A stretch of 64,000 nt of DNA, from positions 56,101-120,100 of the forward strand of contig MEPR01000039.1 in assembly GCA_001769835.1 (NCBI GenBank), written 5' to 3'. The DNA is from Bdellovibrionales bacterium GWB1_55_8 (GTDB taxonomy: Bacteria; Bdellovibrionota; UBA1018). Below are positions 11,383-42,285 of the stretch, piece by piece. The position numbers and the translations under genes were made by a program. Position 1 is the first letter of the stretch; each line of letters opens with the position of its first letter. The notes beneath the pieces were generated by a model. The model saw only the letters and a program-made list of their open reading frames with translations, did no database searches and was not told the origin of the DNA.

Positions 11383-12279
11383 GTGAAGAGACCTTTCTCA
11401 GCTGTCGTATCGACTCTGTTTGCCTGTGCATTTTCCCTGACGGTCACCGCCTGCAATGTCTTTGAGCCACTGGATGGTCCCAGCTCAGACGCGCAACTTT
11501 TATCTGCTGCGCGGGCCGCTTTTGATCAGGGCAGATTTGAAGAGGCCGCCGATTTCTACGGTCGCCTTTCATCTGATTACGCGGAAGTCTCCGCAAGTGA
11601 ATCGGCCTTTCAGATTCTGGACCAGTACGGCGCATCCATGGGCGCTTTCATGAGCTCTTTCGGACAGGGTATGGAGAACATCGGCGTGGGATTCACCAGA
11701 CTCGCCCCGAAGCTGACCTCAGATGGACGTGCCCCCGGCCAGGCCAAGCGCGTTGCGATTTTTGGCGCTTTCCGGAAAATTGACAACATCACCTCGAACC
11801 CGGAATTACGGGGCCTGATTCGCTTTGTCTCGGCGGCGGCGCTGCTGTCTGAAATATTGGCTGAAAACACGGGCGCTTCGGGGTTGTTCCAGGAGGCCGA
11901 TCTTGTTGCCGATCCCAACGCTTGCCTGACTTTGGGCGCAGGTTGCGCAGCCCCCGGCGGCGCTTGCAGAATTCCGACAGGCAAAACGATCAATGACTCC
12001 GGCACCGCCTTCGAGTTGAGCCTGAATACAGCCGGGCGCCCTTCTGACCCTGCGGCACTCGCCAAACTCGACGTTGCGGCACCGAATTTTCAAATGATCC
12101 AGGCCGCACTGGTGGAAATCAATCACGCCCTTACGACTGAGATCGCCGCGAGCGGTGACCTCGGTGGATCGCTTCAGGGTTTCTCAGCGGAGTTTATCAA
12201 CGTCTACGGACTCGTCCTTGATGCGACTCCGAACTGTTATCGCCAAGGGCTTCTTCTGAACGGAATCGGAGCGAACTAA
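11383..12279 (+). CDS. Hypothetical lipoprotein
   Basis: Signal peptide plus lipobox (LFACAFSLTVTAC). Its stop overlaps the start of the next ORF (ATGA), so the two are likely co-transcribed. Confidence 0.5.
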   Translation: MKRPFSAVVSTLFACAFSLTVTACNVFEPLDGPSSDAQLLSAARAAFDQGRFEEAADFYGRLSSDYAEVSASESAFQILDQYGASMGAFMSSFGQGMENIGVGFTRLAPKLTSDGRAPGQAKRVAIFGAFRKIDNITSNPELRGLIRFVSAAALLSEILAENTGASGLFQEADLVADPNACLTLGAGCAAPGGACRIPTGKTINDSGTAFELSLNTAGRPSDPAALAKLDVAAPNFQMIQAALVEINHALTTEIAASGDLGGSLQGFSAEFINVYGLVLDATPNCYRQGLLLNGIGAN

Positions 12280-13397
12280 TGAAAGCACATCACCTGTTGA
12301 CCGCAGCAATCGTTATCATCTCCTTGTCCTCATTTCCCGAGCGAGCCCAGGCGCTTGAGCAGATCATCCGTCCCTATCAGAACGCGCGAAGCAGCGGAAT
12401 GGGCGGAGTTAAAATCACGACGGGTTTTTACGACGAGAACTTTTTCGGCAACCCCGCTCGTGTCACCCACAATCCGAAGTTCCGCCTGAGCCTGCTGGAA
12501 CCGACTTTCGAGATCAACCCGAACTCGATCAGCACCGTCTCGGATCTCGCCGGCGCCGATGATATCCTGCAGACGCTCGGGGATACCGCCGGACGGAGCA
12601 ATCACGTTCGTGTGCAGACGGTTTTCCCATCGATCTATATTCCGACGAACAATGGCGCGCGAATGTCCTATGCGTTCGGCGTGATCATGAACTCGCAGGG
12701 TGACGTGGCACTGAGAAGAAGCTTCCAGGTCAATCCCCAGGCCGTGGTCGATATCGGCCCGGCGCTTACGATTGGCAGGCGCTTCCTTGCGAATGATGCT
12801 TTGTCCGTAGGTCTGACTTCGCATCTGATTTATCGTGCGGCAGCTCGCACGAACCTTTCTCTCGGCGACCTGCTCGAAGACTCTTCGATGTCCCCCGAAC
12901 GAATTGGCGGCGATGGAGCTATGGTCGACTTTGACCTGGGCGCCACCTACGAACTTCCGTGGATCTGGAAAGATTTCCAGTTTCTCACGGGCGCAGCCAT
13001 TAATAACGTCCTTGGCGGCAAGTATTCGAATCTGAACCTGCAGGTGATCGATAATACGGCAGGTGCCCTCGAACAGCCGCGCACACTCGGCCTTGGCATC
13101 ACTGCACGCCGCGCGAAACTCGGCCCTTTCCGTGATTTTCAGACGGCTTTTGAGATCACCGACATTGGAAATAACGATGGTGGAAGCCTGTTCCGCCTGA
13201 TTCATATCGGCGCCGAAGCTCACTACGGAGTCCTGGCTCCGCGGCTCGGGATCAACCAGGGTTACCTGACCGGCGGACTTGGATTGAACACGCGGTTCTT
13301 CAGTCTCGATTACGCCTACTACGGTGAAGAGCTCACCTTAAACGCCGGCGGTTATGAAGATCGTCGCCATATCGTGAAAATAGCATTTCATATCTGA
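12279..13397 (+). CDS. Secreted putative outer-membrane protein, family not recognised
   Basis: 372 aa with signal peptide MKAHHLLTAAIVIISLSSFPERAQA. Alternating amphipathic beta-strand-like segments rich in G/Y/N. The antisense ORF 12330..13223 is judged a shadow ORF. Confidence 0.45.
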   Translation: MKAHHLLTAAIVIISLSSFPERAQALEQIIRPYQNARSSGMGGVKITTGFYDENFFGNPARVTHNPKFRLSLLEPTFEINPNSISTVSDLAGADDILQTLGDTAGRSNHVRVQTVFPSIYIPTNNGARMSYAFGVIMNSQGDVALRRSFQVNPQAVVDIGPALTIGRRFLANDALSVGLTSHLIYRAAARTNLSLGDLLEDSSMSPERIGGDGAMVDFDLGATYELPWIWKDFQFLTGAAINNVLGGKYSNLNLQVIDNTAGALEQPRTLGLGITARRAKLGPFRDFQTAFEITDIGNNDGGSLFRLIHIGAEAHYGVLAPRLGINQGYLTGGLGLNTRFFSLDYAYYGEELTLNAGGYEDRRHIVKIAFHI

Positions 13398-13451
13398 ACG
13401 AAACATTCGAAAGTCCGACAAAAAGGGTGTAAACAGGCTTAAACCCAATGG

Positions 13452-13979
13452 GTGAGGAGTTCCTGCATGACATCCGCTATTCTTGCGCCACGAGAGAAGC
13501 TTTTCCTTCTACTGGCGGTTTTCGCGCTTTCGACCACCGCCTTCGCCGAAGGTAATATCCGGGCAGGAAATGCTGCGGTCAGCGGTTATGCGGACGTCTC
13601 CCGAAGATCTGCCCCCAGCGATGCGACCGACTATGCGCTGGGTATCAATAGCTCTTATTTTTTCCGGGATTCTCTCGCGCTTGGCGTAAAGGGTACGATC
13701 AGCGGATCTTCCGATTCGGACATGGGCGCCCTTCTCGGTCCGACTGCCACGTACTTCTTCTGGAGTCAGGACAGCCTCGCGAGCTATGCCCGAGCCGGAA
13801 TTCAATTCGGCCTGACCGATGTCTCGGTCCTATCGATCATTCAGGGAGAACTCGGGCTCGAGCATTTCCTTCTACCTTCGGTTGCTCTCGGGCCGGTGAT
13901 CTCCTACTCTCATTACAATAGTCGCTACTCGGACTTCCAACGCCTCGGATTTTCCGTGAATCTGGCTATTTATCTGTAG
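13452..13979 (+). CDS. Small outer-membrane beta-barrel protein (OmpW/OmpA-like 8-strand type)
   Basis: Signal peptide (LLLAVFALSTTAFA) followed by alternating aromatic/hydrophobic beta-strand pattern with G/S/N-rich turns. Likely start is the Met at 13467. Confidence 0.55.
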   Translation: MRSSCMTSAILAPREKLFLLLAVFALSTTAFAEGNIRAGNAAVSGYADVSRRSAPSDATDYALGINSSYFFRDSLALGVKGTISGSSDSDMGALLGPTATYFFWSQDSLASYARAGIQFGLTDVSVLSIIQGELGLEHFLLPSVALGPVISYSHYNSRYSDFQRLGFSVNLAIYL

Positions 13980-14026
13980 GGCGGCCTGAACGAGATAGGG
14001 CCAAGCTCTCGATTTTCTTCGTTTCT

Positions 14027-14048
14027 TAAGACTCTCAAGTCTTTTTCA
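14027..14048 (+). terminator. Weak intrinsic terminator after the small OMP gene
   Basis: AAGACTctcaAGTCTT 6-bp stem followed by TTTTCAAA. Confidence 0.3.
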
Positions 14049-14119
14049 AATCAGCCGCTCTTGCGAACCCTTGCAACGCACCGCACAATAAGAGTGCGGC
14101 CATAGGCCCAGGAGTTCGT

Positions 14120-14584
14120 ATGTGGCAATCCCCCAATCAACGAGTCCGTGCGATCGCGAATTCAAAAAAACGCGAACGAGAAAGACTTCAGCAGCAATTT
14201 CACCTGAGAAGGGTTTCAGTGAGCCTGAAACTCGAACCGGCAGCCAGTGCGCCGCCAGACGCGCCCGCGGAGGCTATTACCCTCCTGGCGCGCGCTGTAT
14301 TGAACGATCTCAGCCCGCAGGGCATTGGCCTCTTTGTCTCGCAGCAACTCACCTCTGGCGAGATCCTGAGCCTGACGATCCATGGACATAAGCCACTCGA
14401 GGTGCGCGGCCGAGTCGTGGCATCTCAGGAGTTCGACAACGGAAGCCATATCCTGTCGCAGCAACACTTCACCTGCCGCGTCGGCATCCAGTTCATCTTC
14501 GACTCGCCCGAAAAAGAGCGCGAAGTAAAGGAATATTGCCAGTCGATTGCAGGCGAGCTGCTGGGCGGAAAAGCGGCGGCCTGA
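14120..14584 (+). CDS. PilZ-domain (c-di-GMP-binding) protein convergent with fliA
   Basis: 154 aa with an RxxxR-type motif (RERERLQQQFHLRR) and a D/NxSxxG motif (NDLSPQGIGL). Confidence 0.6.
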   Translation: MWQSPNQRVRAIANSKKRERERLQQQFHLRRVSVSLKLEPAASAPPDAPAEAITLLARAVLNDLSPQGIGLFVSQQLTSGEILSLTIHGHKPLEVRGRVVASQEFDNGSHILSQQHFTCRVGIQFIFDSPEKEREVKEYCQSIAGELLGGKAAA

Positions 14585-31413: not shown

Positions 31414-32058
31414 TTACCTCCTTTCTTTATGCGTGGTCACTGCAGCGTCACTCGACGCATCGGTACCCCGCTCTTTTGGAGCGGAATCGTTGGCCCGGAC
31501 CACTCCGGCCAGAAGTTCTGTCAACCGCGACGACTTCGCGGGATCCATAAGATTCATGATCTTTGCTAAACGCTGCGTCGAAATCCGCGACATGGCCGAA
31601 ACCGCGAGCGTCTCATCAAGCGAGGTCAGAAGCTGCGACGCCGCTTTCGGGCTCATCGTCTCGAAAGTCTCCACCAGCTTGTTCACGCGTTCGTCGTTCT
31701 CGGACTTGCGGGATTCCTGCACCTTCGCAAGCTCCTTGCGTATTCCATCAAACTTCTTCAGCTCCTCCGCGATCGCGTCCTCGCGCGCCTTGAACTCCGC
31801 TTCCTTGGCAACAAGATTGCGTTCGCGCACCTGAAGAGCCTCGCGCTGCTTGCGCAGATCCTCGATCACCGAAGGATCCGTCAGGCATGCGCCCGACGCT
31901 GAGCTGGAAATATTCGTTTCCGTAGTGTCGCCCCCGGAACTCTCAGCTGCACCCGCCGACCCAGCCGCTGAAGGAGCCGGGGTCTCTGCACTTGCGAGCA
32001 CCGTCATGACGGCGGCAGCGAGAAACACCATGACTGCAAGCGTTCTGAGGAGTCTCAT
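31414..32058 (-). CDS. MotE/FlbB/YlxF-like flagellar protein (MgtE-N-like domain)
   Basis: Signal/TM N-terminus, coiled coil and an MgtE_N-like C-terminus (…LLTSLDETLAVSAMSRISTQRLAKIMNLMDPAKSSRL…). Sits between fliJ and fliK, as ylxF does in Bacillus. Confidence 0.5.
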   Translation of the reverse strand: MRLLRTLAVMVFLAAAVMTVLASAETPAPSAAGSAGAAESSGGDTTETNISSSASGACLTDPSVIEDLRKQREALQVRERNLVAKEAEFKAREDAIAEELKKFDGIRKELAKVQESRKSENDERVNKLVETFETMSPKAASQLLTSLDETLAVSAMSRISTQRLAKIMNLMDPAKSSRLTELLAGVVRANDSAPKERGTDASSDAAVTTHKERR

Positions 32059-32510
32059 CCGACAGCCCTCTCCTTCAGGCGATCTCTCATGACCGACATG
32101 TCGTCGAGCAGCTTCTGCTCGCGCTTGCTCTGCATCTTTCGAAATTCAGCATGCTCGCGGTCGTACAGCGACTCCATCATGCGAGTCTGACGCCGCGTAT
32201 GAAGAAAATACTTCAAAGCCTTTTCGACCGCGCGACTCGCGCGCATGATATCGCGGTCAGCGCGCACGATCCGATGTTTCGTTCCTGCGATGAATTCGTC
32301 CTCAAGCTGGAAGGAAAGAACGCCGATTGGTTCGATACCAAGATTCTCACGGCGGATCAGCGCATTCTGAAGTTCGGAAACAAGACGTCCCTTTTTCGAG
32401 AGCTCTTCCTGATAAGCCCGTTGCGCATCACCCAACGCACGAAGAGCCTCCTCTTCGCGGCTTTTGCGCAGATTCAATACAGTGGCCAGTCTGAATCGGA
32501 AGCGTCTCAT
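32055..32510 (-). CDS. fliJ: Flagellar export chaperone FliJ
   Basis: About 150-aa all-helical protein starting MRRFRFRLATVLNLRKSREEEALRAL (FliJ-type). Start placed at ATG 32510 rather than the ORF-track TTG at 32522. Confidence 0.65.
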   Translation of the reverse strand: MRRFRFRLATVLNLRKSREEEALRALGDAQRAYQEELSKKGRLVSELQNALIRRENLGIEPIGVLSFQLEDEFIAGTKHRIVRADRDIMRASRAVEKALKYFLHTRRQTRMMESLYDREHAEFRKMQSKREQKLLDDMSVMRDRLKERAVG

Positions 32511-32609
32511 GTCTAAGATCAATTCTGATCTTGAGGCTCACCGCCCGCTAGACTGAATGTTTTGCCGCATGAAGGGGCACCACTGCTGCCGAGTGGAAAA
32601 AAGTGCCGA

Positions 32610-33173
32610 TCAGAGTGCGCGGCTCTTCAAGCCCGGCGGCCCCACTCCGTTTGAAATGACTTGAAACGGATCCCAGCTCCCGGACCAGAGTCCTTTCGAT
32701 TCAAGGAAATTCTTTGTAAAATACTCGGTTACGCGTTTGAACTCGTGGCCCCAACTTATAATCCTGGAATAAAGAGTACGGTCCCAGAACCTGCCCTTCG
32801 CGTTCGTCTTGCGGGCTCCCATGATCTGAAAGGCCAGCGCTCCTGAAAACTCCCTGAGGAAGCCCTGAAAATTCCGCTTCGCGGAAACGAAGCCCTTCGC
32901 GTCTGCTTTCACGAGCAAATGCAGGTGATTTCCCACGTTTACAGATCGATACACGCGGATCCTGTAGCGCCGGGCGCAGTCGGCCAACAGGTGTTCGAAC
33001 AATTTTGCATTCTCGCGGGTCAGAAGAGACCACTTCCCTTGCGCGCGGCTGGACCGCAGGACGAGATAGATCGGGTGCTTATGGCTGAACGGACGAGCCA
33101 CCTTTCTTCGCCCCTGACGTACCCCTCCCCCATGCTCGAGACGAAGGGATGGCAGAAATGAAGCCTGTTTCAT
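32610..33173 (-). CDS. tnpA: IS200/IS605-family Y1 HUH transposase (TnpA/RAYT-like)
   Basis: HUH motif NHLHLLVKA plus a C-terminal RAYT-like FWDRTLYSRIISWGHEF (catalytic Tyr region). Start at MKQASFLP (33173). The ORF-track start at 33284 would read through the upstream palindrome. Confidence 0.75.
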   Translation of the reverse strand: MKQASFLPSLRLEHGGGVRQGRRKVARPFSHKHPIYLVLRSSRAQGKWSLLTRENAKLFEHLLADCARRYRIRVYRSVNVGNHLHLLVKADAKGFVSAKRNFQGFLREFSGALAFQIMGARKTNAKGRFWDRTLYSRIISWGHEFKRVTEYFTKNFLESKGLWSGSWDPFQVISNGVGPPGLKSRAL

Positions 33174-33174
33174 G

Positions 33175-33192
33175 ACCGGATATATATCCGGT
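33175..33192 (-). promoter_or_regulatory. 18-bp perfect palindrome ACCGGATATATATCCGGT, 2 nt upstream of the tnpA ATG. Likely the IS200-type left-end hairpin, which would occlude the RBS.
   Basis: Seen directly in the sequence. IS200 elements carry such hairpins, serving as TnpA recognition sites and translational repressors. Confidence 0.5.
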
Positions 33193-33376
33193 TCAGTTAA
33201 CCGTGTAAAGACGTTTGTTACGGGTGAACGCTGGGGCAATGGTATTTTGATCGTACAAACACTGATGGAAACAAGGTCTGTCACATCTATTCTGCTAACT
33301 GACCCTGGATTTTTCTCGACCTTGTCAAAGCGCCATGAAAGCCGATGCTGTCGCGGAGCCTTTCAATAGGTAAGCT

Positions 33377-33577
33377 TCAGTTTTTGCGATCACATAAGTC
33401 TTGAGCATTCGGCTCATTTTTTCGGCAGACATTATCGATCGTGTCCCAGCAACCACCCGAGTCCAGACACGAGTCCTGCTTCATCCACGTACATGCATTC
33501 AGAGCAGATACCAGGAGCAAGCATGCTGAGATCAGCATCATCGAGAAAAGCCGTCCGTTCGCCCTACTCCGGGTCAT
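33377..33577 (-). CDS. Small secreted Cys-rich lipoprotein, 66 aa with 7 Cys
   Basis: Signal peptide plus lipobox (LLVSALNAC), then a Cys-rich mature peptide CTWMKQDSCLDSGGCWDTIDNVCRKNEPNAQDLCDRKN. Overlaps the start of the upstream kinase gene by 4 nt. Confidence 0.4.
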   Translation of the reverse strand: MTRSRANGRLFSMMLISACLLLVSALNACTWMKQDSCLDSGGCWDTIDNVCRKNEPNAQDLCDRKN

Positions 33578-34071
33578 TCAAAGGCCTTCTTCTTGATCAG
33601 ATCAGCGATCTCGTCCGGACTCATGTTGTCGGTCTTGATCTCAAACCCAAGCGCACCGTTCAAAAATCTTCCTCTCTGATTTCGTTCCACTTCCTGGGTT
33701 TCAGAAACTTCCCTCTCGGCTTGCGGTCGTCCACGTTTCAGAATCCGAGCGGAGAGACTCCGAGTTTCAGCTGAAAGATAGAACACACGGGCAGGCTCGC
33801 CCACTCTCTGAATGAAATCTTCCATCAGGTCAGGACTCAAAAACAGGCTATCGAATACGATCGTCCTTGCGCCCAGGCGGCGATAAGCGCTGATCAGATC
33901 ACAGGCGACATTCAAGGCAAGTTTCTGTCGCGACTGCGTGGCAATCAAATTATCCGAAACGAACCCGAGAACGTCGCCTTCAATATACGCGGCATCGTCC
34001 AACTGGCATAGCAGAGTCCTTGCCACCCAGGTTTTTCCAACGCCCACGGTGCCGTTTACGATGATGAGCAT
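33574..34071 (-). CDS. Small P-loop kinase (AAA_33/gluconokinase-sized NTP-binding protein)
   Basis: 165 aa with Walker A NGTVGVGKT at residues 6-14 and a Walker B-like hydrophobic strand plus D (IVFDSLF). Confidence 0.55.
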   Translation of the reverse strand: MLIIVNGTVGVGKTWVARTLLCQLDDAAYIEGDVLGFVSDNLIATQSRQKLALNVACDLISAYRRLGARTIVFDSLFLSPDLMEDFIQRVGEPARVFYLSAETRSLSARILKRGRPQAEREVSETQEVERNQRGRFLNGALGFEIKTDNMSPDEIADLIKKKAFE

Positions 34072-34197
34072 GTCTCAATCGTAAGTAGCGGCAGCCCGCC
34101 CGTCGAGCTAAAAAATACCGGAGCTCCATGCGAAAACATCGAAGTAAGAATCGCCGATGTCTTCGCATGAAGTTCCGGGTTCGAATTCACTGCAGTC

Positions 34198-34653
34198 CTA
34201 TTCGGACTTCTGTTGTACACATCTGATGTTCTGCTGATCGACTGTTTCAATGAACTCATCCACAAGGTCTTCGAGGTGTGAAACGATCTTGTGCCGAAGG
34301 TCAGGAGTGTCATCGAAGTACCTTACTTTTTTCCCTCGATCAGAAAGCGTGCTGAATACCGTCACGCCATTCGATTTCACGGCCTTAAGCCAGATTCTGT
34401 TCCTGAAAAAACTGGCACAAGACACCACGCCGCACTTTGCAAGCCCGGTCCACCCTGTGTAGTAATCCGTCTCAAGGAATATATGAGCAGGCACTCCCTG
34501 CGGCACCACATGATAGCCCTTCGTTAACAAGTGTTGCTGAGCCCATGTGTCATCGGTTGAGATCGTGCAGTTTAACGATGGACCGTCTTTCGCGTACGCT
34601 GATGAGACCGCGACCAAGCAGATTCCAACGATAGCCATAATTTTGCCGTTCAT
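34198..34653 (-). CDS. Hypothetical secreted protein
   Basis: Signal peptide MNGKIMAIVGICLVAVSSAYA. 4 Cys in the mature part. Low local GC. Confidence 0.4.
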   Translation of the reverse strand: MNGKIMAIVGICLVAVSSAYAKDGPSLNCTISTDDTWAQQHLLTKGYHVVPQGVPAHIFLETDYYTGWTGLAKCGVVSCASFFRNRIWLKAVKSNGVTVFSTLSDRGKKVRYFDDTPDLRHKIVSHLEDLVDEFIETVDQQNIRCVQQKSE

Positions 34654-34888
34654 ATGTTCTCCATTTTCTTCTTCCGGTTCAGCCCGGAAGCGAAAACGAG
34701 AATACGCCGCAATAGTCCAGGTCTCCGCTGACATCCTCTGACGTAAAGTAACATACGGAATTCACGAAAGAATCGCGATTCCTGCCGACCCTGCTCTACT
34801 TCGGCGCACCCTTGAAATTATCGGCCGGCTATGAGCATATGGCCCTCGTCGACTTGCACAATTCCAAACTTTTAGCGTCTCTATCGAG

Positions 34889-36268
34889 GTGATCCGGATG
34901 AGAGCTTTGTTCATCACACTTCCATTTCTGTTCATCGGCATAAACTCGGCCACTGCCGATGTTCTTCCGATTCAGGCAAACTACGTTTCGACGCGGGCCC
35001 AGGAAGGAATCATGTCTTTCGACCATTTCGTCGAGTTCAACGCGGATGCGAGGCAATCCGACACGGCACTTCAGGGCTGGGCGCGGCAGGCGATTGAAAA
35101 GCAGCTCATGTTTCTGATCGGTTCAATGAGGTGGCACTTCTCCGTTCCGAAGGGCGATCACAAAATCACGGAGCTGCGCCTTGCCCCGAAAAGCGCACAG
35201 GGTGTGACGATGATCGCCTCTTACCATTACGAGGGAACCGTTCAGATCCGCGAGGACGTACCCCTTCCGCTCAGGCTCGTGCTTCCGAATAACCCCTATC
35301 GGTTTTACTGGGACGGTCTCGTGCGAGATGGCTTCAAAATAAGCGCGCCTTGCACGCAGAAGCATTATCGTTGGCCGAGCGACCTGTTTTATTTCTGGCA
35401 CCCTTACGCTCCCGCGTGTCCATGGAAACGCGGCGAGGACTACCAGGAGATCCAGCCTGAAATCGTTTTAAAAAATAACGACGAAACGACCTATCCGGAA
35501 TACGACCGGCTTGTCGACCCCGCCACCCGTACGATCTCGATGTGGATACTTGTCGGACCTGCCAGCAACAAATCCATGAATCCGATGACCTCTCCTGATA
35601 TCAATGCGCAGACTTTCTGTGAATTCCGGGAACATTTCCTGCGTAAGGGATTTTCTTCACGGCGTTGGACCTCCAAAGAAATCCGCAGGAAGGGGAACAC
35701 CCTCTTCGCGAAACTCCCTTGGGTCGAGGATTTCGAAAAACAAGGCGCCCGATCCCGTATCCTGATCCACGCATTCTATGGCCATACCGCGGTGAAGGAT
35801 TTCAGCCGCGCTTTTTACCACTTTCTTGAGGACGGGGTCGAGAACGCCTCAATGGTGGTGTACGCAGGACATGCAGGATTGGGCAAAACCCTTGCACCTT
35901 CCGTAGCGGAAAAGATCGGGCTACTCAGGATGCGACCCAATCGGGATCGCTACCAGATCTATTTCTTCAACGGATGCAGCACTTACGCTTATTACACGCA
36001 ACCCTACTTCACGCGTAAAGCGAGCGCTTTGGATCCAGAAGGCACAAAGAACCTCGACATCATCACAACCGGCCTGGCCACAGGCGAGGACTTCCTCGGG
36101 AGTAGTTCACTCGCCGCGATCGATGCTGTGACGGACTGGGCTGATGGCGGTGCTGCCGCAAGTTATCAGGAAATCCTGAAACGCGCAGGTGGTTCCAATT
36201 TGCTGAGCGTCAGCGGAGATGAAGACAATCCGTCATCTCCGCAAAAACCCTTCCAAACGCGCGATTAA
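34889..36268 (+). CDS. Secreted protein with a putative clan-CD (caspase/clostripain/gingipain-like) cysteine peptidase His-Cys dyad
   Basis: Signal peptide (LFITLPFLFIGINSATA). The C-terminal half has a hydrophobic strand plus GH (MVVYAGHAGLG) followed ~40 aa later by a hydrophobic strand plus xC (QIYFFNGCSTYAYY), the arrangement typical of CD-clan peptidases. Confidence 0.4.
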   Translation: MIRMRALFITLPFLFIGINSATADVLPIQANYVSTRAQEGIMSFDHFVEFNADARQSDTALQGWARQAIEKQLMFLIGSMRWHFSVPKGDHKITELRLAPKSAQGVTMIASYHYEGTVQIREDVPLPLRLVLPNNPYRFYWDGLVRDGFKISAPCTQKHYRWPSDLFYFWHPYAPACPWKRGEDYQEIQPEIVLKNNDETTYPEYDRLVDPATRTISMWILVGPASNKSMNPMTSPDINAQTFCEFREHFLRKGFSSRRWTSKEIRRKGNTLFAKLPWVEDFEKQGARSRILIHAFYGHTAVKDFSRAFYHFLEDGVENASMVVYAGHAGLGKTLAPSVAEKIGLLRMRPNRDRYQIYFFNGCSTYAYYTQPYFTRKASALDPEGTKNLDIITTGLATGEDFLGSSSLAAIDAVTDWADGGAAASYQEILKRAGGSNLLSVSGDEDNPSSPQKPFQTRD

Positions 36269-38455
36269 CAGGTCTAAAATCGAAATTCTATCCTTTGAGA
36301 CTGGCTCCCCGATTCTCCCCTTTTCGAGTTCCGCAAGCTCCCGCGCCTTCAATGTACGAACCGCCTGCTCGGCTTTCGATCGATCGCTGGCAAGCGCCGC
36401 TTCAGCGGACTTGGCAAGAGCCGTATCCGATTGGATCAATTCCTTTTCCCGTCTGAGCTCATCGTCTGAAGGCACCCGCCTTGTTCTGAATTCTGGTTCT
36501 GCGGGAAGTGTAAGTTCCACTTTACTCAGCCAGACGTCAGAAGGAGCACCGGTTCTCGCAGAAGGAGCGAGACAACTTGGGTCTGCGGAGAAAATATTGA
36601 AACTCAGGAAACTTCGATCGGGGGAAAGCGACATCTGAACGTCCAGCTTCGCGTCCCGATGTGATGCAAGCCACAGGGATTTCGGTGTTCTTGAGAAAGA
36701 CGATTTGCAGTTCCTGAATTGAATGGTGCCACTCCACGAGTCAGGTTTGATGGTCAGATCAGCACTGAAATCGCGGCGCGATACCTGGACCTTCACCACA
36801 CCAGCAGCGGCATCGCAGTTCACCTTGAGTTTCACATCAGCAAATTTTTGGCCGTTCGGAACTTCCCCGGCGGAAGCATAATGGGCGATCTCCGGCTTCT
36901 TCGGATCAAAGTCGCGTCTCTCAATCCGCACCTTCTTGGGATGTCCTTTTTTATCGAAAAGGTCAGGATCAGAACAGTAGAGCCTGTAAATCTCTTTCGC
37001 ATCGCGAGATTTCAGACCCCGCGATTTTATGAGATCCGGGAAACGCATACCGGCGGTTTGGATGACTCCGGAAATATCCTCGATCGACTCCGCGCGAATG
37101 ACACCGCCCCCTTCTTTTCGGATAGCCAGATAGACGTTCCCTAGCGAGTCTTTGATTCCGGTTTCCTTGCACCCAACATGACTGCGGTAGAGGCTGAAAT
37201 ACGGGGAGTTATAGTAACCCTCCTTCGCTATACCGCCGACATCACCACCGCCGCCTTTGCCGACATCACCACCGCCGCCTTTGCCGACATCACCACCGCC
37301 GCCTTTGCCGACATCACCACCGCCGCCTTTGCCGACATCACCACTGAACCTCAGTCCAGATGACGAATCCACAAACGGACTCGGACACACGGATTGAAAC
37401 CGTTCCGTAGTAGCGCCGACACGAAAAGTGATCTCGGGCGTGCCCACAGCTCCACCTGGTGTTTGTGTCACCGTCCGGTCGTAGTAATACGGAGACCCTT
37501 CTGCTTTCGAGACATCAAGCCCATTCATGAGCCCTGGAAGGGCCTCATTGATGGTCTCGATCGGAACCGCGACGGACTGGGTTTCGTTCAAGAACGTCTT
37601 CAGAAGTATTCCAGAGAGGAAAGTTTTCGATTCGAAGATCTCACTGGTTCCGCTTCGGGGTACCAAAACGGTGTAAATAATCGGACTGCCACTCATGCCT
37701 GGCCGGACACCCTGCTTCGGCAATAGGACTGCGCTCCTACTCCCGATAAGCGGATGCTCTGCAGCTTGGGTCGCGAGCTCGATTTGCACGGGAAAACGAT
37801 TGGGGATCACCTTCAATCCATCTTCAGTCACTCGTGCGAGATGCAGATTTTCCCGATTGACGAAATCCGCCGCTGTTTGGATGTAATGGCTGCCTTCTGG
37901 CAGCCAGTTTTCGCGATTAATGGGAAGCAGGTGGCGAACTTCAGCCACGGGCAGTTTGAAACCATCCCAAACAAATAAGGGCGTCAGGTCCGAAACAATC
38001 TTCTCTAATTCCAGGACCGCGAGATCCTTCGTCTGGCTGATACCGCGAACTTTTGCCTGAACAACTTTCCCCCCGCAGCGGACCTGGACCTTTTCGGCGC
38101 CTGCGACCACGTGTGCGGCGGTCAAAACGAACAGATGTTTTGGTTCATTGGCCGATTTAAAGACAGAGCCTTGCCCAATCGAGGACAGCGAGTCTTTACC
38201 GGACTGCCTCTGCCCCTCGATCTCGACTACTTCGCACCGGTCCAGAACCGGGGCGTTGTTCGCGATTCGATCCAGCCATCTCACCAGCTCCGGCTCAAGG
38301 AGCGCCTCGCCTGACAAGCCACTATTGCAACAAGGGTCCGCAGTCACTGGCGAAGATGAGCCAGACAAAGCCATTGCAGGGATCATCGATCCCGCGACGC
38401 CGAAGAGAATAGTGAGCACTCGCAGTGGAAAACTGCACATCGTTCGTTTATTCAT
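36233..38455 (-). CDS. Large secreted trypsin-like (S1 family) serine protease with an internal (GDVGKGGG)n tandem repeat and a C-terminal coiled coil
   Basis: Signal peptide MNKRTMCSFPLRVLTILFGVAGSMIPAMA. Catalytic His (VLTAAHVVAG), Asp (KDLAVLEL) and Ser (GMSGSPII) in S1 order. Repeats GDVGKGGG ×4.5, then …ELRREKELIQSDTALAKSAEAALASDRSKAEQAVRTLKARELAELEK. Start chosen at the signal-peptide Met. Confidence 0.6.
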   Translation of the reverse strand: MNKRTMCSFPLRVLTILFGVAGSMIPAMALSGSSSPVTADPCCNSGLSGEALLEPELVRWLDRIANNAPVLDRCEVVEIEGQRQSGKDSLSSIGQGSVFKSANEPKHLFVLTAAHVVAGAEKVQVRCGGKVVQAKVRGISQTKDLAVLELEKIVSDLTPLFVWDGFKLPVAEVRHLLPINRENWLPEGSHYIQTAADFVNRENLHLARVTEDGLKVIPNRFPVQIELATQAAEHPLIGSRSAVLLPKQGVRPGMSGSPIIYTVLVPRSGTSEIFESKTFLSGILLKTFLNETQSVAVPIETINEALPGLMNGLDVSKAEGSPYYYDRTVTQTPGGAVGTPEITFRVGATTERFQSVCPSPFVDSSSGLRFSGDVGKGGGGDVGKGGGGDVGKGGGGDVGKGGGGDVGGIAKEGYYNSPYFSLYRSHVGCKETGIKDSLGNVYLAIRKEGGGVIRAESIEDISGVIQTAGMRFPDLIKSRGLKSRDAKEIYRLYCSDPDLFDKKGHPKKVRIERRDFDPKKPEIAHYASAGEVPNGQKFADVKLKVNCDAAAGVVKVQVSRRDFSADLTIKPDSWSGTIQFRNCKSSFSRTPKSLWLASHRDAKLDVQMSLSPDRSFLSFNIFSADPSCLAPSARTGAPSDVWLSKVELTLPAEPEFRTRRVPSDDELRREKELIQSDTALAKSAEAALASDRSKAEQAVRTLKARELAELEKGRIGEPVSKDRISILDLLIARLEGFLRR
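37222..37345. repeat. Perfect 24-bp tandem repeat (GACATCACCACCGCCGCCTTTGCC) ×4, plus one partial copy at each end (about 5.3 copies), in-frame within the S1 protease gene
   Basis: Seen directly: …gccgacatcaccaccgccgcctttgcc ×4 …gacatcaccactgaa. Encodes GDVGKGGG units on the minus strand. Confidence 0.9.
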
Positions 38456-38534
38456 CGGCATAACCTGGTGACTTCCTAAGTATTCTTTGTCTGCTTGCCG
38501 ATAAGAGTCCTGGAGGGCTCCCGGGAGCTGCGTC

Positions 38535-39728
38535 ATGAAACATAAATACGGCTCTACTGCTCTGAACAAGAGCCCAACACTGAGGAGCAGCGAACTTTCG
38601 GCGATCTACTACTCGCTGGTCGAGATGATCTTGCAAGGCCGCTATGAAGCAACGGCGGAAGCCCTGAACCAACTTCGTCGTGGAAGCCCGTTCACGCATG
38701 ACGATAACGAAGCTATTCGCAGATTGATTGCCGCGCGCCTCGCGATAAAACAAGGCGATGCTGGTGAGGACACATCCTGGCTGGATATTCCAGTTCCGGA
38801 GAATTCCTGGCTTGCTGCTGAAAAGGAAATTGTAAAAGGTCATTGGGAGTATCACCTGCAGAACTTTCCGATGGGCATCACGCACTTTAAGGAGGCGGAG
38901 CGCCAATTCAAAAACCTGGGAATGCTCGATCGGGAGTTCCTCAGCGCTTTCAATCAAATCATCGGCGAAGTCAGTGGCCCCTCTCAGCTCCCCCCCCTTC
39001 AGCAGATCGATCAGCTTCGGCAGTTGGAGATCCGAGTCCGACAGCACCTCGAGAAAGTGGGCTGCGTGCGAGTTCAGGCGCTGATTCATCGACAAAAATC
39101 TCACGCATTTGAGGACCTGACCCTGTTCCACGCGGCGGTGGAAGAGATATCAAAAGCGATACAAATACTGGAGCTTCACGGGCCAGCCTCGGACTATCAA
39201 CTGGCCCTGCTTCAGGCTGCCGACCTGAGCCTGGATTTAGGTGACCAGTTCCGGGGTCGCACCTTTTTCGAATACGTCATTCCACCGCTCGATAAGAGAG
39301 TTGAATTTCCTCATGCCTACATAGCCTGGCGATTGGGCGGACCGCTTCCCGAGCAATCCAATTTTGAAATCCTGCCCGGCGGATGGAAGGAAAAGTTCGA
39401 GAAATTGAGAGCATCCCTCACTCCCGATAACAGTACTCCTCACGAATGGACCTGGAATCTCACCTCAGGTGAGATTCAAAGCCCTGAGCTTCTCAAACCC
39501 ATTCAACTCAAACCAGCAAGCCTGGAAGGGCGCCTCGTACAGATGTTGACCCGCAACAAGGCAACGAAGAACCTTCTAATTGAATCTTTCTGGCCCGGGC
39601 AAAGCGACAGACAGTTACTGGACAACCGCCTGCACAGGATGATCTCCCGCTTGAACAAAAAGTTGTCGAACCTCATCGAGTTTGACGGGAAAAGTTATCG
39701 TCTCAAGCGGCGATTACGGACTAAATGA
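38535..39728 (+). CDS. Atypical transcriptional regulator: N-terminal helical/TPR-like domain and C-terminal OmpR/PhoB-type winged-helix DNA-binding domain, with no receiver domain
   Basis: C-terminus …LEGRLVQMLTRNKATKNLLIESFWPGQSDRQLLDNRLHRMISRLNKKLSNLIEFDGKSYRLK matches the trans_reg_C pattern (LT..E..LL..L…vWg…..ld..i.rLRkKL…i.tvrg.GY.L). Divergently transcribed from the protease gene. Confidence 0.5.
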   Translation: MKHKYGSTALNKSPTLRSSELSAIYYSLVEMILQGRYEATAEALNQLRRGSPFTHDDNEAIRRLIAARLAIKQGDAGEDTSWLDIPVPENSWLAAEKEIVKGHWEYHLQNFPMGITHFKEAERQFKNLGMLDREFLSAFNQIIGEVSGPSQLPPLQQIDQLRQLEIRVRQHLEKVGCVRVQALIHRQKSHAFEDLTLFHAAVEEISKAIQILELHGPASDYQLALLQAADLSLDLGDQFRGRTFFEYVIPPLDKRVEFPHAYIAWRLGGPLPEQSNFEILPGGWKEKFEKLRASLTPDNSTPHEWTWNLTSGEIQSPELLKPIQLKPASLEGRLVQMLTRNKATKNLLIESFWPGQSDRQLLDNRLHRMISRLNKKLSNLIEFDGKSYRLKRRLRTK

Positions 39729-39799
39729 AAGAAATGCCGCCACTCTTCTTCTCGAAGAGGGCGGCATTCTCATGAACGGCTAAATAAACTCCTAGAGCA

Positions 39800-40642
39800 T
39801 CAAAGGACTGAGTCGGAACCCGGAACGCTGACACCCGCTTTGGTGAAATAGGCCTGAAAATCAGCTTCAGAGACTTCCTCGCCGTTGATTTCATACTTGG
39901 TTTCTGTTCCATCGAAGGACTGTTTCAACTCCGCCGAAAAATCCGCATACTCAAGTTTGAGGGCCACGGAGCCGCTGCCATCGGCCTCTGTGCTGCTGAA
40001 TTCCATTTCCACATCGGCTTGCAGTTCGAATTTCACATCACCCTTGGTCTGCGAGTGGACATCGCCCTTAACCTCGCCCTCGATCACGATCGAACCACCG
40101 CTCGTGGAGGTCGTTGCTTTGACTGCGATCTCGCCCGAAAGGTCGAACTTGTCGACATCGTTCAGCTTGCGGAATTCGTCGTCTTTCACTTCGTATTTCA
40201 GCGTGGCGGCGACCTTGGCTTCCGTTTCGCTGCCTGAGCCCTTCATTTCGATATTCATCGAAATCGGGCAGGACACATCAGGCTTGTCGGAAACCTGAAT
40301 TTTGATATTGAAGCTGGTGGCGCTCGTCGAAACAGGTACCGAATAGTCCACCTGACAAAGTTCGTCTGCCAGCTTCTCCTGCATTTCAATGGTGGTGGGA
40401 TCCGTCGTGAGCGCTGCCGAACGTGATCCAGCCGTGCCACTGAGAAAGGACAGCGCATGGAACCGGTTCACAACAGGAAGGGCGAGCGTTGCCGGCGCGC
40501 CAGGAACCGATTGATGAGTGCGGCCCGCGCTTTCGATTGTTGCCGACACGATGGCCTTCTGCTCATCTGTCAGCTTCTTTTGTCCACAACCAGTCACGAC
40601 GAGTGCCATCAGCACGGATACAAGCACAAATGCGTTTCTCAT
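39800..40642 (-). CDS. Hypothetical lipoprotein
   Basis: Lipobox LMALVVTGC. S/T/E/K-rich repetitive beta-rich mature domain. Confidence 0.5.
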   Translation of the reverse strand: MRNAFVLVSVLMALVVTGCGQKKLTDEQKAIVSATIESAGRTHQSVPGAPATLALPVVNRFHALSFLSGTAGSRSAALTTDPTTIEMQEKLADELCQVDYSVPVSTSATSFNIKIQVSDKPDVSCPISMNIEMKGSGSETEAKVAATLKYEVKDDEFRKLNDVDKFDLSGEIAVKATTSTSGGSIVIEGEVKGDVHSQTKGDVKFELQADVEMEFSSTEADGSGSVALKLEYADFSAELKQSFDGTETKYEINGEEVSEADFQAYFTKAGVSVPGSDSVL

Positions 40643-40803
40643 GAGATCTCCTTTTATTTGCAGGGATCATAAGGAAGGAAACGCAAATTCACAAGCTGAC
40701 GCTTCAGCGAAAGACGCATTCGCCTTACGTCTTATTCTGAAGTTATTCAGTTGACAGCCTTGAGCCGTAACCACTCACGGATGACAGTGGATGGATTCCC
40801 TGC

Positions 40804-42285
40804 CTATTTTTGCTTCTGCCCGGTCTGCTGTGCCGCGAAGGCGGCTTCCACGCTCCGGACAATCGAATAGAGCATCCCGGTGGCCTGATCGTAAGTCGTT
40901 CGTTCATCGATTCCCTGCCGGAGAAACGCATTGATCCGCTCGATCGCGAAAATCGCCTGATCGATCTTCGCATTGCTGCCTTTCACATAGGCTCCGATAT
41001 TGATCAGATCCTCGGCCTGCGCGTAGGCTGCCATCCATTCCCTGACCTGGCCTGCCCAGAGATTATGTTCCTTGCTGATCACCGAACGCATCACACGACT
41101 TGCGCTCTGAAGCACATCAACGGCCGGGTAGTGATTGCGTTGCGCGATCTTCCTAGAAAGGACGATGTGCCCGTCCAGAATGGACCGGACGGAGTCCGCG
41201 ATCGGATCATCCATGTCATCGCCTTCCACGAGTACCGTGAACAAGCCCGTGATACTCCCCTTTTTCGGCGCCATGCCGGCGCGTTCAAGAAGCTTCGGAA
41301 GGGTCGAGAACACACTGGGAGTGTAGCCCTTGGAAGCCGGAGGTTCGCCCATGGCCAGCCCGATTTCACGCTGGGCCATCGAGAAGCGGGTCACTGAATC
41401 CATGAGCATCAAAACGTCTTTGCCCTGATCCCGGAAATACTCCGCGATCGTCATTCCAAGGAAGGCCCCGCGCATGCGGAGAAGCGGCGAACGATCAGAG
41501 GTTGAAACGACGACGACCGAACGAGCCAAAGCTTCCGGCCCCAGGTCCCGTTCGATGAACTCCCGGACCTCGCGTCCGCGCTCGCCGATCAGCGCAATCA
41601 CGTTCACCTCGGCCGAGGTATGCCTGGCCATCATCCCTAGCAGGACGGATTTTCCGACACCCGAACCTGCCATGATCCCGACACGCTGGCCCTTGCCACA
41701 AGTCATCAGCCCATTGATGGAACGAATTCCGAGATCCAGGGGCTCGGTAATCATTTCACGCTCGAGAGGATGGGATGGAACCTGGTACAGGCTCCGCTCC
41801 TCCAGCCATTCGCCACGTGAAACCAGCGGTCCCTTGCCGTCGATTGGAACGCCCTTTCCATCGATCACACGGCCGAGAAGCGCGTTTCCAACCGGGACCG
41901 TGGATTTATTCTTTCGAAGAACGACCAGGCTGTCGTTATGGACACCTGAGGCATCTTCAAAGGGCATCAGAAGAACACGCTTGTCGCGAAACCCGATCAC
42001 CTCGGCATCAACGCCTTCGTCCGCTCCTGGTTCGCTTGAGCTGAGAATGCGACAAAGACTTCCGACCGCTGCACCGGGCAGATGCGCCTCGTAAATGAGA
42101 CCAAGAGACTTGGTCACTTTACCGGCATGATTGTAGAGAAGCGTGTGTTTGAGCCGATCCTCGTACTTCGCGGAATCAATCTCCCAGGTCACGTGGTCTC
42201 GCTCCCATGCTCTGTCGAACTGGCGAAGAGAGCCGAGGAGATGCTCTGAAGCTGCGCCTCGACGCTTGCGTTGATCGCGTTCCAC
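40804..42285 (-). CDS. fliI: Flagellum-specific ATP synthase FliI
   Basis: Walker A GSGVGKS, Walker B …VLLMMDSVTRFSMAQREIGL… and an F1/T3SS ATPase fold. The ORF-track start overlaps fliH by 97 nt, so the true start is probably an alternative codon near 42190-42200. Confidence 0.9.
   Translation of the reverse strand: MERDQRKRRGAASEHLLGSLRQFDRAWERDHVTWEIDSAKYEDRLKHTLLYNHAGKVTKSLGLIYEAHLPGAAVGSLCRILSSSEPGADEGVDAEVIGFRDKRVLLMPFEDASGVHNDSLVVLRKNKSTVPVGNALLGRVIDGKGVPIDGKGPLVSRGEWLEERSLYQVPSHPLEREMITEPLDLGIRSINGLMTCGKGQRVGIMAGSGVGKSVLLGMMARHTSAEVNVIALIGERGREVREFIERDLGPEALARSVVVVSTSDRSPLLRMRGAFLGMTIAEYFRDQGKDVLMLMDSVTRFSMAQREIGLAMGEPPASKGYTPSVFSTLPKLLERAGMAPKKGSITGLFTVLVEGDDMDDPIADSVRSILDGHIVLSRKIAQRNHYPAVDVLQSASRVMRSVISKEHNLWAGQVREWMAAYAQAEDLINIGAYVKGSNAKIDQAIFAIERINAFLRQGIDERTTYDQATGMLYSIVRSVEAAFAAQQTGQKQK

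Follow-up and report, generated by a model that had tools for sequence, protein, structure and literature searches.

A divergent HUH-Y1 gene at the edge of a fliI-fliJ insertion, a member of a multi-copy RAYT-like family in Bdellovibrionota

Introduction

Could a solitary transposase-like gene with a perfect palindrome beside its start codon be anything other than a small insertion sequence (IS)? This question is raised by a stretch of 64,000 nucleotides of the metagenome-assembled genome Bdellovibrionales bacterium GWB1_55_8 (GenBank assembly GCA_001769835.1, contig MEPR01000039.1, positions 56,101 to 120,100 of the forward strand), which is called the window below. Here, a gene encoding a putative HUH protein of the Y1 type lies between the flagellar genes fliI and fliJ. 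A preliminary description of the locus regarded it as a solo transposase related to IS200 or to the REP-associated tyrosine transposases (RAYTs; REP, repetitive extragenic palindromic sequence). It further proposed that an 18-bp palindrome upstream of the ATG is an IS200-type recognition hairpin that occludes the ribosome binding site, and that the element either took part in acquiring the adjacent accessory genes or is a domesticated RAYT.

Here, we examine the protein, its relatives and their flanking DNA. The reading that we favour, and consider rather more probable than not though well short of settled, is that the gene belongs to a RAYT-like, multi-copy and long-conserved family of Bdellovibrionota, apparently without REPs, whose repeated unit is bounded by a conserved 5' box and the stop codon; the mRNA would be leaderless, and the palindrome is specific to the window copy. 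Loci and contigs of relatives are referred to by running labels (L001 and so on).

The protein is a divergent HUH-Y1 enzyme

Since all homologs begin with MKQxSFLP, the ATG at 33173 is taken as the start of the gene; for the same reason, a longer form of the open reading frame (ORF) starting with GTG was rejected. The HUH motif NHLHLLV noticed at the outset is present at residues 82-88, with the HUH signature formed by N82-H83-L84-H85 on a central beta strand, and the family profile aligns NHLHLL on DHVHLL of ISDra2 TnpA (E=1.8e-5). The C-terminal Tyr motif had been placed in FWDRTLYSRII, and that sequence does occur at residues 129-139, where it supplies the conserved W130. However, its Tyr (Y135) varies between Y, F and W among homologs, and the near-invariant Tyr is Y151 within EYFTKN, on the C-terminal helix and followed by N155. 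In the family profile, Y151 falls on the catalytic Tyr of ISDra2 (Y132) and of IS608 (Y127). An alignment of 130 diverse family representatives, which are 30-48% identical to the query, shows conservation of at least 90% for H83, H85, W130, Y151 and N155 alike.

This identity is only weakly supported by sequence matches, and the evidence from fold and profile is decisive. The Pfam match, Y1_Tnp (PF01797), scores 17.7 bits, under the gathering cut-off of 23, which some homologs do pass according to precomputed matches. The best NCBIfam match, REP_Tyr_transpos (REP-associated tyrosine transposase, NF047646), is also weak and reaches 27.6 bits against a cut-off of 80, and NCBIfam IS200 (NF033573) reaches 18.9 bits against 55. 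A search of the PDB with the single sequence returned only noise, and the family profile was required. The AlphaFold2 model, built with 26 homologs (pLDDT 81, pTM 0.74), has a ferredoxin-like beta-alpha-beta-beta-alpha-beta core and a disordered tail, with no extra domain. Its top 30 Foldseek matches in the PDB, all at probability 1.00, are either IS200/IS605 TnpA proteins (IS608, ISDra2, Sulfolobus IS200) or the RAYT 4ER8, and the best superposition is on the latter, from E. coli, with a root-mean-square deviation of 3.7 A. The JGI/COG label of the homologs is RayT. The homology to Y1 transposases that the preliminary description expected to see in PF01797 is consequently missed at the Pfam cut-off, and recovered by fold and family profile.

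The family motifs are NHLH, W and Y-x3-N. They correspond to the signature of the 'class 2' (TnpA-REP-like) proteins of Quentin et al. (2018), while IS200 has Y-x3-Q (PMC6006769, Table 1). The family differs from class 2 in having F or L instead of Pro after the Asn, and W-D as the Trp motif. At the N-terminus, its proteins share a basic extension, MKQxSFLP..HGG..GKRKxARPF, which matches no subclass tabulated in PMC6006769. As judged from the model and the profile, the protein is a genuine, very divergent HUH-Y1 enzyme related to IS200/IS605 TnpA, and most like the RAYT ('class 2') branch. Such an enzyme would nick and join single-stranded DNA by means of a metal bound by H83 and H85, together with Y151. 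No TnpB-like neighbour was found: on the minus strand, the gene is preceded by an AAA_33 kinase-like ORF and a 66-aa ORF, and fliJ follows it. The description of a solo Y1 HUH gene is supported.

The repeated unit runs from a 5' box to the stop codon

Then, what are the boundaries of the element? When four paralogs of the same genome are compared pairwise, their upstream DNA has an identity of about 0.33. In the block with AATACCATAGCCCC the value reaches 0.77, it remains high over the coding sequence, and directly past the stop codon it is down to 0.31. Because identity rises at the box block and falls after the stop, the repeated unit can be delimited as box to stop codon, about 0.65 kb. Of the 80 distinct family loci, about 70 have the box in front of the gene and in the same orientation; its distance to the start codon varies with the subfamily, from 26 to 125 nt. 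In the window its core, (A)CCATTGCCCC, occupies 33233-33243, and the box reaches 33248 when the preceding A-rich tract is included. In L143, the closest relative with flanking sequence, the box is identical over 16 nt, and the remaining flanks are unalignable. The box may be the cognate binding or cleavage site of the HUH protein, or an operator that the protein would occupy.

Several other descriptions of the box were tried and rejected. As a general hairpin (CATTG-CCC-CAATG) it forms a stem of at least 4 bp in only 7 of 67 copies, with fewer than 4 pairs in the other 60, and the window copy does not fold, the right half of its dyad being degenerate. As a dispersed repeat it gives 10 orphan copies in 711 kb of relatives' DNA versus about 4 expected, and the 64-kb window holds no second copy. 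As a terminal inverted repeat (TIR) or right end, a second or inverted box 3' of the gene yields 17 and 20 near-matches on the two strands versus 14.5 expected on each, with no positional peak.

Beyond the stop codon, neither a hairpin nor a TIR nor a REP nor conserved sequence was found in the family loci. Direct and inverted repeats flanking the HUH gene amount to chance-level pairs, no 12-mer is over-represented in the flanks, and an Rfam scan of 31.5-35 kb returned no RNA families.

A few orphan boxes are close to genes of the family: two inverted copies separated by about 75 nt in L030 (~5797-5888), a direct pair inside a 268-nt repeat in L029 (1664-1673 and 1932-1941), and two boxes upstream of a divergent XerC/D-like ORF in L024 (5788-5897). 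In addition, a second conserved element, GTTGCACTT-N5-7-CTAAATCCGCCC, occurs about 40 nt upstream of the box in L052, L066, L076, L031, L081, L040 and L037. It is common to several subfamilies from different genomes, and is not evident in the window copy.

Might the gene be a classical domesticated RAYT, whose cognate REPs or REPINs (REP doublets forming hairpins) reside outside the window and include the palindrome or the box as one member? The best NCBIfam match, the JGI name, the best structural superposition, and the vertical inheritance and purifying selection described below all agree with this explanation, as do the few orphan boxes, including the pairs in L030 and L029. However, the flanks contain no over-represented 12-mers, palindrome and box are each single in 64 kb, the orphan boxes are few in relation to the chance expectation, the NCBIfam score is far below its cut-off, and the family is multi-copy, unlike typical RAYTs (PMC5581495). 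Taken together, we regard such a hidden REP population as unlikely.

The palindrome is specific to the window copy

The second question is what the palindrome next to the ATG represents. The perfect 18-bp palindrome of the preliminary description is real, but it is separated from the ATG by 1 nt instead of 2 nt. The window contains 18 hairpins with a stem of at least 8 bp, compared with 7.6 +/- 3.7 in shuffled sequences, and six with a stem of at least 9 bp, compared with roughly 2 by our own estimate; at its centre, the palindrome consists of (AT)4, which is self-complementary. Because of these many hairpins and the (AT)4 core, the palindrome is unusual without being extraordinary, and it is notable mainly for its position. 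By itself it forms a hairpin with a 7-bp stem (-6.5 kcal/mol as DNA, z = -3.45), while the fold of the 107-nt 5' region as RNA is not significant (z = -1.17).

The palindrome is absent from all of the more than 80 family loci, the closest relatives included, and from relatives without the gene, and recurs only in re-assemblies of the same organism. A 72%-identical homolog carries a degenerate, non-palindromic version, TTTGATAGATCTCCAGGGC. Presence of the palindrome at this locus in relatives lacking the transposase, which the preliminary description had named as evidence against its own proposal, was looked for and not seen. The further copies or REP-like sequences suggested there did not appear either: with up to 3 mismatches, the palindrome has a single hit in the 64-kb window, itself. 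In a collection of metagenome contigs, 55 scattered matches were obtained, each single-copy, unrelated and never beside a homolog, a result that says little about the source genome, which this collection did not contain. The palindrome was consequently rejected as a REP, being unique in the window and single-copy in the metagenomes, and as a conserved feature of the family. As a terminator it was rejected too, since no T-run follows it and a terminator scan made no call.

What is shared at this position by the family is a promoter-like layout. A -35-like TTGnnn, a spacer of 16-18 nt and a -10-like TAnnnn ending 5-9 nt before the start codon occur together in 24 of 80 family genes, whereas the same geometry at shifted anchors is met in 0-7 genes, mostly 0-2; by eye, it can be seen in most of the remaining genes. 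For example, L143 has TTGTCA-17-TAAAGA-7-ATG. A Shine-Dalgarno-like motif is absent in 68 of 80 family genes, among which GTG starts are frequent. Such a motif precedes 37 of the 47 long ORFs of the window, and the HUH gene has none, its positions -17 to -5 reading CGGATATATATCC. In the window, a weak promoter, TTTACA-17-TATATA, with its -10 ending 7 nt before the ATG, would yield a leaderless mRNA, which we propose as the explanation for the missing Shine-Dalgarno sequence. The layout suggests, on sequence grounds, that the HUH gene is expressed in this way.

In the window, the palindrome covers this putative -10 and the presumed start of transcription, where it might at most act as a local operator, or as a cruciform damping transcription, and it is possibly incidental. 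We infer that it is a copy-specific sequence, and not a transposon-end hairpin, a REP or a stem that sequesters the ribosome binding site. Other members carry different short perfect palindromes in the putative promoter spacer (GCGCAGTTGCGC, CGCAGCTGCG, CCCAGTCTGGG, GCTCGAGC and TCAGGCCTGA), in L012, L014, L010 and L008 (~20-31 nt upstream of the start) and in L144 (10-19). These could be copy-specific operators, or they could be due to chance.

These observations bear on the model of a minimal IS200-type IS, in which the left-end palindrome would serve both as the TnpA recognition hairpin and as an mRNA stem hiding the ribosome binding site, as in Salmonella IS200. Indeed, the unit is a compact one of about 0.65 kb with a single tnpA-like gene and no tnpB, the palindrome folds stably as DNA, and IS200 is known to sequester its Shine-Dalgarno sequence by a stem-loop in the 5' untranslated region (PMC4513863). 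However, the palindrome is missing in every other member, including relatives that are 72-75% identical, and has no 3' partner, whether a matching hairpin or conserved sequence. There is no Shine-Dalgarno sequence underneath it to occlude, the family layout placing a putative -10 there, and the RNA fold of the region is insignificant. The protein has NHLH and Y-x3-N in place of the DH[VI]H and Y-x3-Q of IS200-type proteins (PMC6006769), the NCBIfam IS200 score lies well under its cut-off, and the within-genome divergence given in the next section contrasts with the ~99% identity of IS200-type copies (PMC6006769, Table 1). Therefore, this model is largely refuted, and we consider it highly unlikely.

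An old family under purifying selection

How widespread is the family, and is it active? An exhaustive profile search returned 580 clusters at 50% identity with E<=1e-30, and 1,454 with E<=1e-10, nearly all of them from Bdellovibrionota. Among contigs taken from one genome per species, 135 relatives were found, again almost all in Bdellovibrionota, and searches of 72,556 plasmids and 50,697 phage records gave no homolog. The 80 loci listed, several of which are at contig ends, amount to 2-9 copies per genome. Copies within a genome are 75-91% identical as DNA, with synonymous divergence (dS) of 0.4-1.1 and a nonsynonymous to synonymous ratio (dN/dS) of 0.02-0.12; the proteins of one paralog pair are 99% identical at dS 0.41. 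For comparison, IS200-type (subclass 1.1) copies within a genome have a mean identity of 99.4% (PMC6006769, Table 1). Syntenic orthologs across species have dN/dS of 0.05-0.17, and examples of syntenic sets are L007/L014/L001 (beside MBL-tgt-yajC-secDF-recJ), L008/L010, L020/L026 and L022/L028. For the window gene and its closest homolog dN/dS is 0.12, with dS saturated.

Five contigs encode the exact HUH protein, each time among the same neighbouring genes; one sequenced copy is identical to the window, and another differs by one single-nucleotide polymorphism in 4.5 kb. The 72%-identical protein P0002 is encoded in L001 (contig ANAN16-1 scaffold_22, gene 2757-3299), which comes from the same sample as the window. 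The tetranucleotide correlation of this contig with the window, 0.971, matches that between the window's own halves. L001 lies at the tgt-yajC-secDF position that is common to the FG-2 and Kiruna genomes, and it has no 5' box. P0002 is probably a paralog in the window's own genome, at the ancestral tgt-secDF position.

With its strong purifying selection, the family consequently behaves like a gene that has persisted for a long time or has been co-opted, and unlike a recently active insertion sequence. A 'domesticated' pattern, with about one copy per genome, vertical transmission and housekeeping-like evolution, has been described for RAYTs (Bertels 2017, PMC5581495), and the family resembles it apart from the copy number. 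The domesticated RAYT offered as an alternative in the preliminary description fits the selection and synteny data better than an active IS does.

The opposite view would be that of an inert relic, a decaying transposase gene without present function next to a chance palindrome. The palindrome is indeed private to this copy and has a low-complexity (AT)4 core, and the box does not fold, as its dyad is degenerate on the right. However, the ORF is intact with all its catalytic residues, dN/dS is low at saturated dS, and the exact protein persists in one neighbourhood on five contigs with next to no change between the sequenced copies. We consider a relic the least probable of the explanations discussed here.

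The gene marks the edge of a fliI-fliJ insertion

Does the position of the gene tell us anything about its history? In L140 and L141, whose FliI proteins are 77-79% identical to that of the window, the gene order is flgBC-fliEFGHI-fliJ-x-fliK-flgD-x-flgE, with only 85-110 bp separating fliI from fliJ. On either side, collinearity between the window and both relatives is preserved, and 32513-40843 has no match in them. Therefore, the comparison with relatives lacking the insertion confirms an 8.2-kb insertion between fliI and fliJ, with the HUH gene exactly at its fliJ-proximal edge, as had been proposed. The native intergenic sequence CGGCAnTTTTTTCC...AAAACATTCAGTCTAG resumes 1-2 nt past the HUH stop codon, so the 3' end of the gene is the junction itself, and this junction coincides with the family-wide boundary of the unit. 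The features of the region are listed in Table 1.

Table 1. Positions of the features discussed, counted from the first nucleotide of the window
Feature	Position	Strand	Basis or remark
fliJ	32055..32510	minus	Pfam FliJ, 53.7 bits; true start ATG 32510 from homolog starts
Native fliI-fliJ intergenic remnant	32511..32609	minus	AAAACATTCAGTCTAG at 32548-32563; comparison with L140, L141 and L142
7-bp inverted repeat AAGATCA-ATTC-TGATCTT	32515..32532		Just upstream of fliJ ATG; not conserved in L140-L142
Insertion between fliI and fliJ, 8.2 kb	32610..40803		Comparison with L140 and L141
HUH-Y1 (RAYT/IS200-like) protein coding sequence, 187 aa	32610..33173	minus	ORF, homologs, alignments, AlphaFold2 model, Foldseek, family profile
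Perfect 18-bp palindrome ACCGGATATATATCCGGT	33175..33192		1 nt from ATG; private to window copy
Putative -10 TATATA	33181-33186	minus	Centre of palindrome
Putative -35 TTTACA	33204..33209	minus	Sequence; then 17 nt, TATATA, 7 nt, ATG
Family-wide 5' box AAAATACCATTGCCCC	33233..33248	minus	Left boundary of repeated unit; exact 11-mer in window
fliI	40804..42192	minus	NCBIfam FliI/YscN, 602 bits; P0065, 462 aa, 100% identical

On the minus strand from fliI, the insert encodes a lipoprotein-like ORF, unknown proteins, a 778-aa trypsin-like protease, further unknown proteins, the AAA_33 kinase-like protein, the 66-aa ORF and the HUH protein. Its GC content is about 0.50-0.55 versus 0.55-0.60 in the flanks, and its tetranucleotide correlation with the rest of the window, 0.917, is at the low end of the control range of 0.916-0.963; its composition is only mildly atypical. 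Annotation of the cargo for defence systems with PADLOC gave only sub-threshold matches, and no linkage or synteny of the cargo genes was seen at other family loci. In L142, the same fliI-fliJ site holds an unrelated insert of about 3.1 kb (11425-14467) with five ORFs on the opposite strand and no HUH gene; this site is therefore an insertion hotspot in its own right.

Is the HUH gene, then, the motor of the insertion, by a one-ended event resembling those of ISCR/IS91 in which the 3' terminus is the functional end and the upstream DNA is cargo? The native sequence resumes within 1-2 nt of the stop codon, family units always end at the stop codon, and the cargo lies entirely 5' of the HUH gene. 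The same geometry is found in two syntenic pairs with extra DNA directly 5' of the family gene: L014 (1958-6000) has 3.3 kb more than L007, with a C92 amidase, an MFS transporter and a CDP-alcohol phosphatidyltransferase, and L008 (4199-5925) has 1.4 kb more than L010, with a metallopeptidase-like gene. These pairs are suggestive, although the sample is very small. However, the cargo genes are unlinked to family members elsewhere, L142 received an insert at the same site without an HUH gene, and no second box or end-like sequence was found at the fliI-proximal junction. Since the insert has eight genes, any one of them would be at an edge by chance in about 25% of cases. To our knowledge, rolling-circle mobilisation has not been reported for small Y1 enzymes, the IS200/IS605 elements moving by peel-and-paste. 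A causal role of the HUH gene in the 8.2-kb insertion, which the preliminary description had raised, is possible, and the motor model in its full form appears unlikely to us.

Some further features of the locus should be mentioned. In the window, L140, L141 and L142, the 16-nt AAAACATTCAGTCTAG (AAATCATTCAGTCTAG in L142) precedes the start of fliJ by about 35-50 nt, while the remaining intergenic DNA has diverged; it is probably a promoter or regulatory element of the fliJ-fliK-flgD-flgE operon. The 7-bp inverted repeat described near fliJ does exist, one base away from where it had been placed, but relatives do not share it. The trypsin-like protease (36233-38569, minus strand) contains four tandem GDVGKGGG copies, encoded by a repeat at ~37180-37360. 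The Cys-rich 66-aa ORF directly 5' of the HUH unit (33377-33577, minus strand) has a lipoprotein-like signal, LVSALNAC, and no family match.

Discussion

A number of points weigh against the favoured reading of a REP-less, multi-copy RAYT-like family. The role of the box is drawn from conservation and position alone, and the box could be purely a host-factor or promoter element; in some subfamilies it overlaps the promoter spacer or the -35. A consensus promoter scan called nothing in the window, because the -10 TATATA lacks the final T at position 6. If transcription starts further upstream, the RNA hairpin of the palindrome would touch the AUG, and the translational repression once proposed would partly hold. 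The search for REPs covered the 64-kb window, and REP-like partners elsewhere in the genome are possible. Finally, to judge from its sharp boundaries and multiple copies, the unit would have been mobile in the past, and its one recognisable end points to no particular mechanism.

This last point leads to a bolder proposal, namely that the family represents an undescribed kind of one-ended, box-to-stop HUH-Y1 element, leaderless and long-persisting in multiple copies, whose 3' end bounds variable islands. It might then capture genes or seed islands, with an outcome like that of ISCR, or be a co-opted enzyme for processing single-stranded DNA in the predatory Bdellovibrionota. We put this forward as an improbable idea, and still hold the more modest reading of a conserved RAYT-like family.

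Many HUH-Y1 proteins of unknown function fall outside the classical groups, IS200 and the REP-associated proteins. The present family offers a clean case, with a small protein whose catalytic residues are intact, an invariant box of 10-11 nt as a candidate substrate, sharp unit boundaries, and, within a single phylum, many old paralogs that are under selection. Should the box indeed be the cleavage or binding site, the family would provide a tractable system for the role of 'domesticated' Y1 transposases. There are consequences for annotation as well: genes of this family are annotated as hypothetical because they score below the thresholds of Pfam and NCBIfam, a palindrome beside such a gene needs comparative support before it is read as an IS end, and the fliI-fliJ junction should be treated as an insertion hotspot in this lineage.

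Comparison with known systems

The comparison with ISCR/IS91 is an analogy of geometry only. In both cases an HUH gene stands at one extremity of unrelated cargo, with one recognisable end; however, ISCR/IS91 have large Y2/Rep-like transposases and defined ori and ter ends, and replication-coupled mobilisation is not indicated here.

Subclasses 2.1 (TIRYT) and 2.3 of Quentin et al. (2018) share with the family the absence of REPs near the gene, and subclass 2.3 is also multi-copy and lineage-confined, with a within-genome identity of about 75%. However, the proteins of both subclasses have 238-325 aa with a helix-turn-helix (HTH) or other added domains, compared with about 185 aa and none in the family, and they belong to another host phylum. 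TIRYTs have GGGG[AT][CG]A[CG] terminal inverted repeats and a C-terminal HTH, and the family has neither; no inverted repeat brackets the HUH gene of the window.

The IS200/IS605 TnpA proteins (IS608, ISDra2; subclass 1.1) align with the family at the HUH motif and the catalytic Tyr. IS200 itself (707 bp) is likewise a one-gene unit in the range of 0.65-0.7 kb without tnpB, and has a stem-loop beside its start site (PMC4513863). In contrast, the family lacks subterminal hairpins at two ends, has NHLH and Y-x3-N where IS200/IS605 have DH[VI]H and Y-x3-Q, and consists of old copies (dS 0.4-1.1) where IS200-type copies are ~99% identical. It also has no Shine-Dalgarno sequence and is probably leaderless, and no plasmid or phage copies were found.

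The closest counterpart is RAYT/TnpA-REP (E. coli YafM, 4ER8; class 2, PMC6006769). Compared with RAYTs, the family shows no REP or REPIN in the flanks or anywhere in the 64-kb window, and has 2-9 or more copies in each genome where RAYTs have about one, a score of 27.6 bits against the NCBIfam cut-off of 80, F or L instead of P after Y-x3-N, W-D instead of W-Q/E, a conserved basic N-terminal extension, and a single linear 5' box in place of flanking hairpins. Nevertheless, the two have in common the HUH-Y1 fold with the best superposition obtained (3.7 A), the NHxH motif, the conserved W and Y-x3-N, the label RayT, and a chromosomal, vertically inherited existence with low identity between paralogs.

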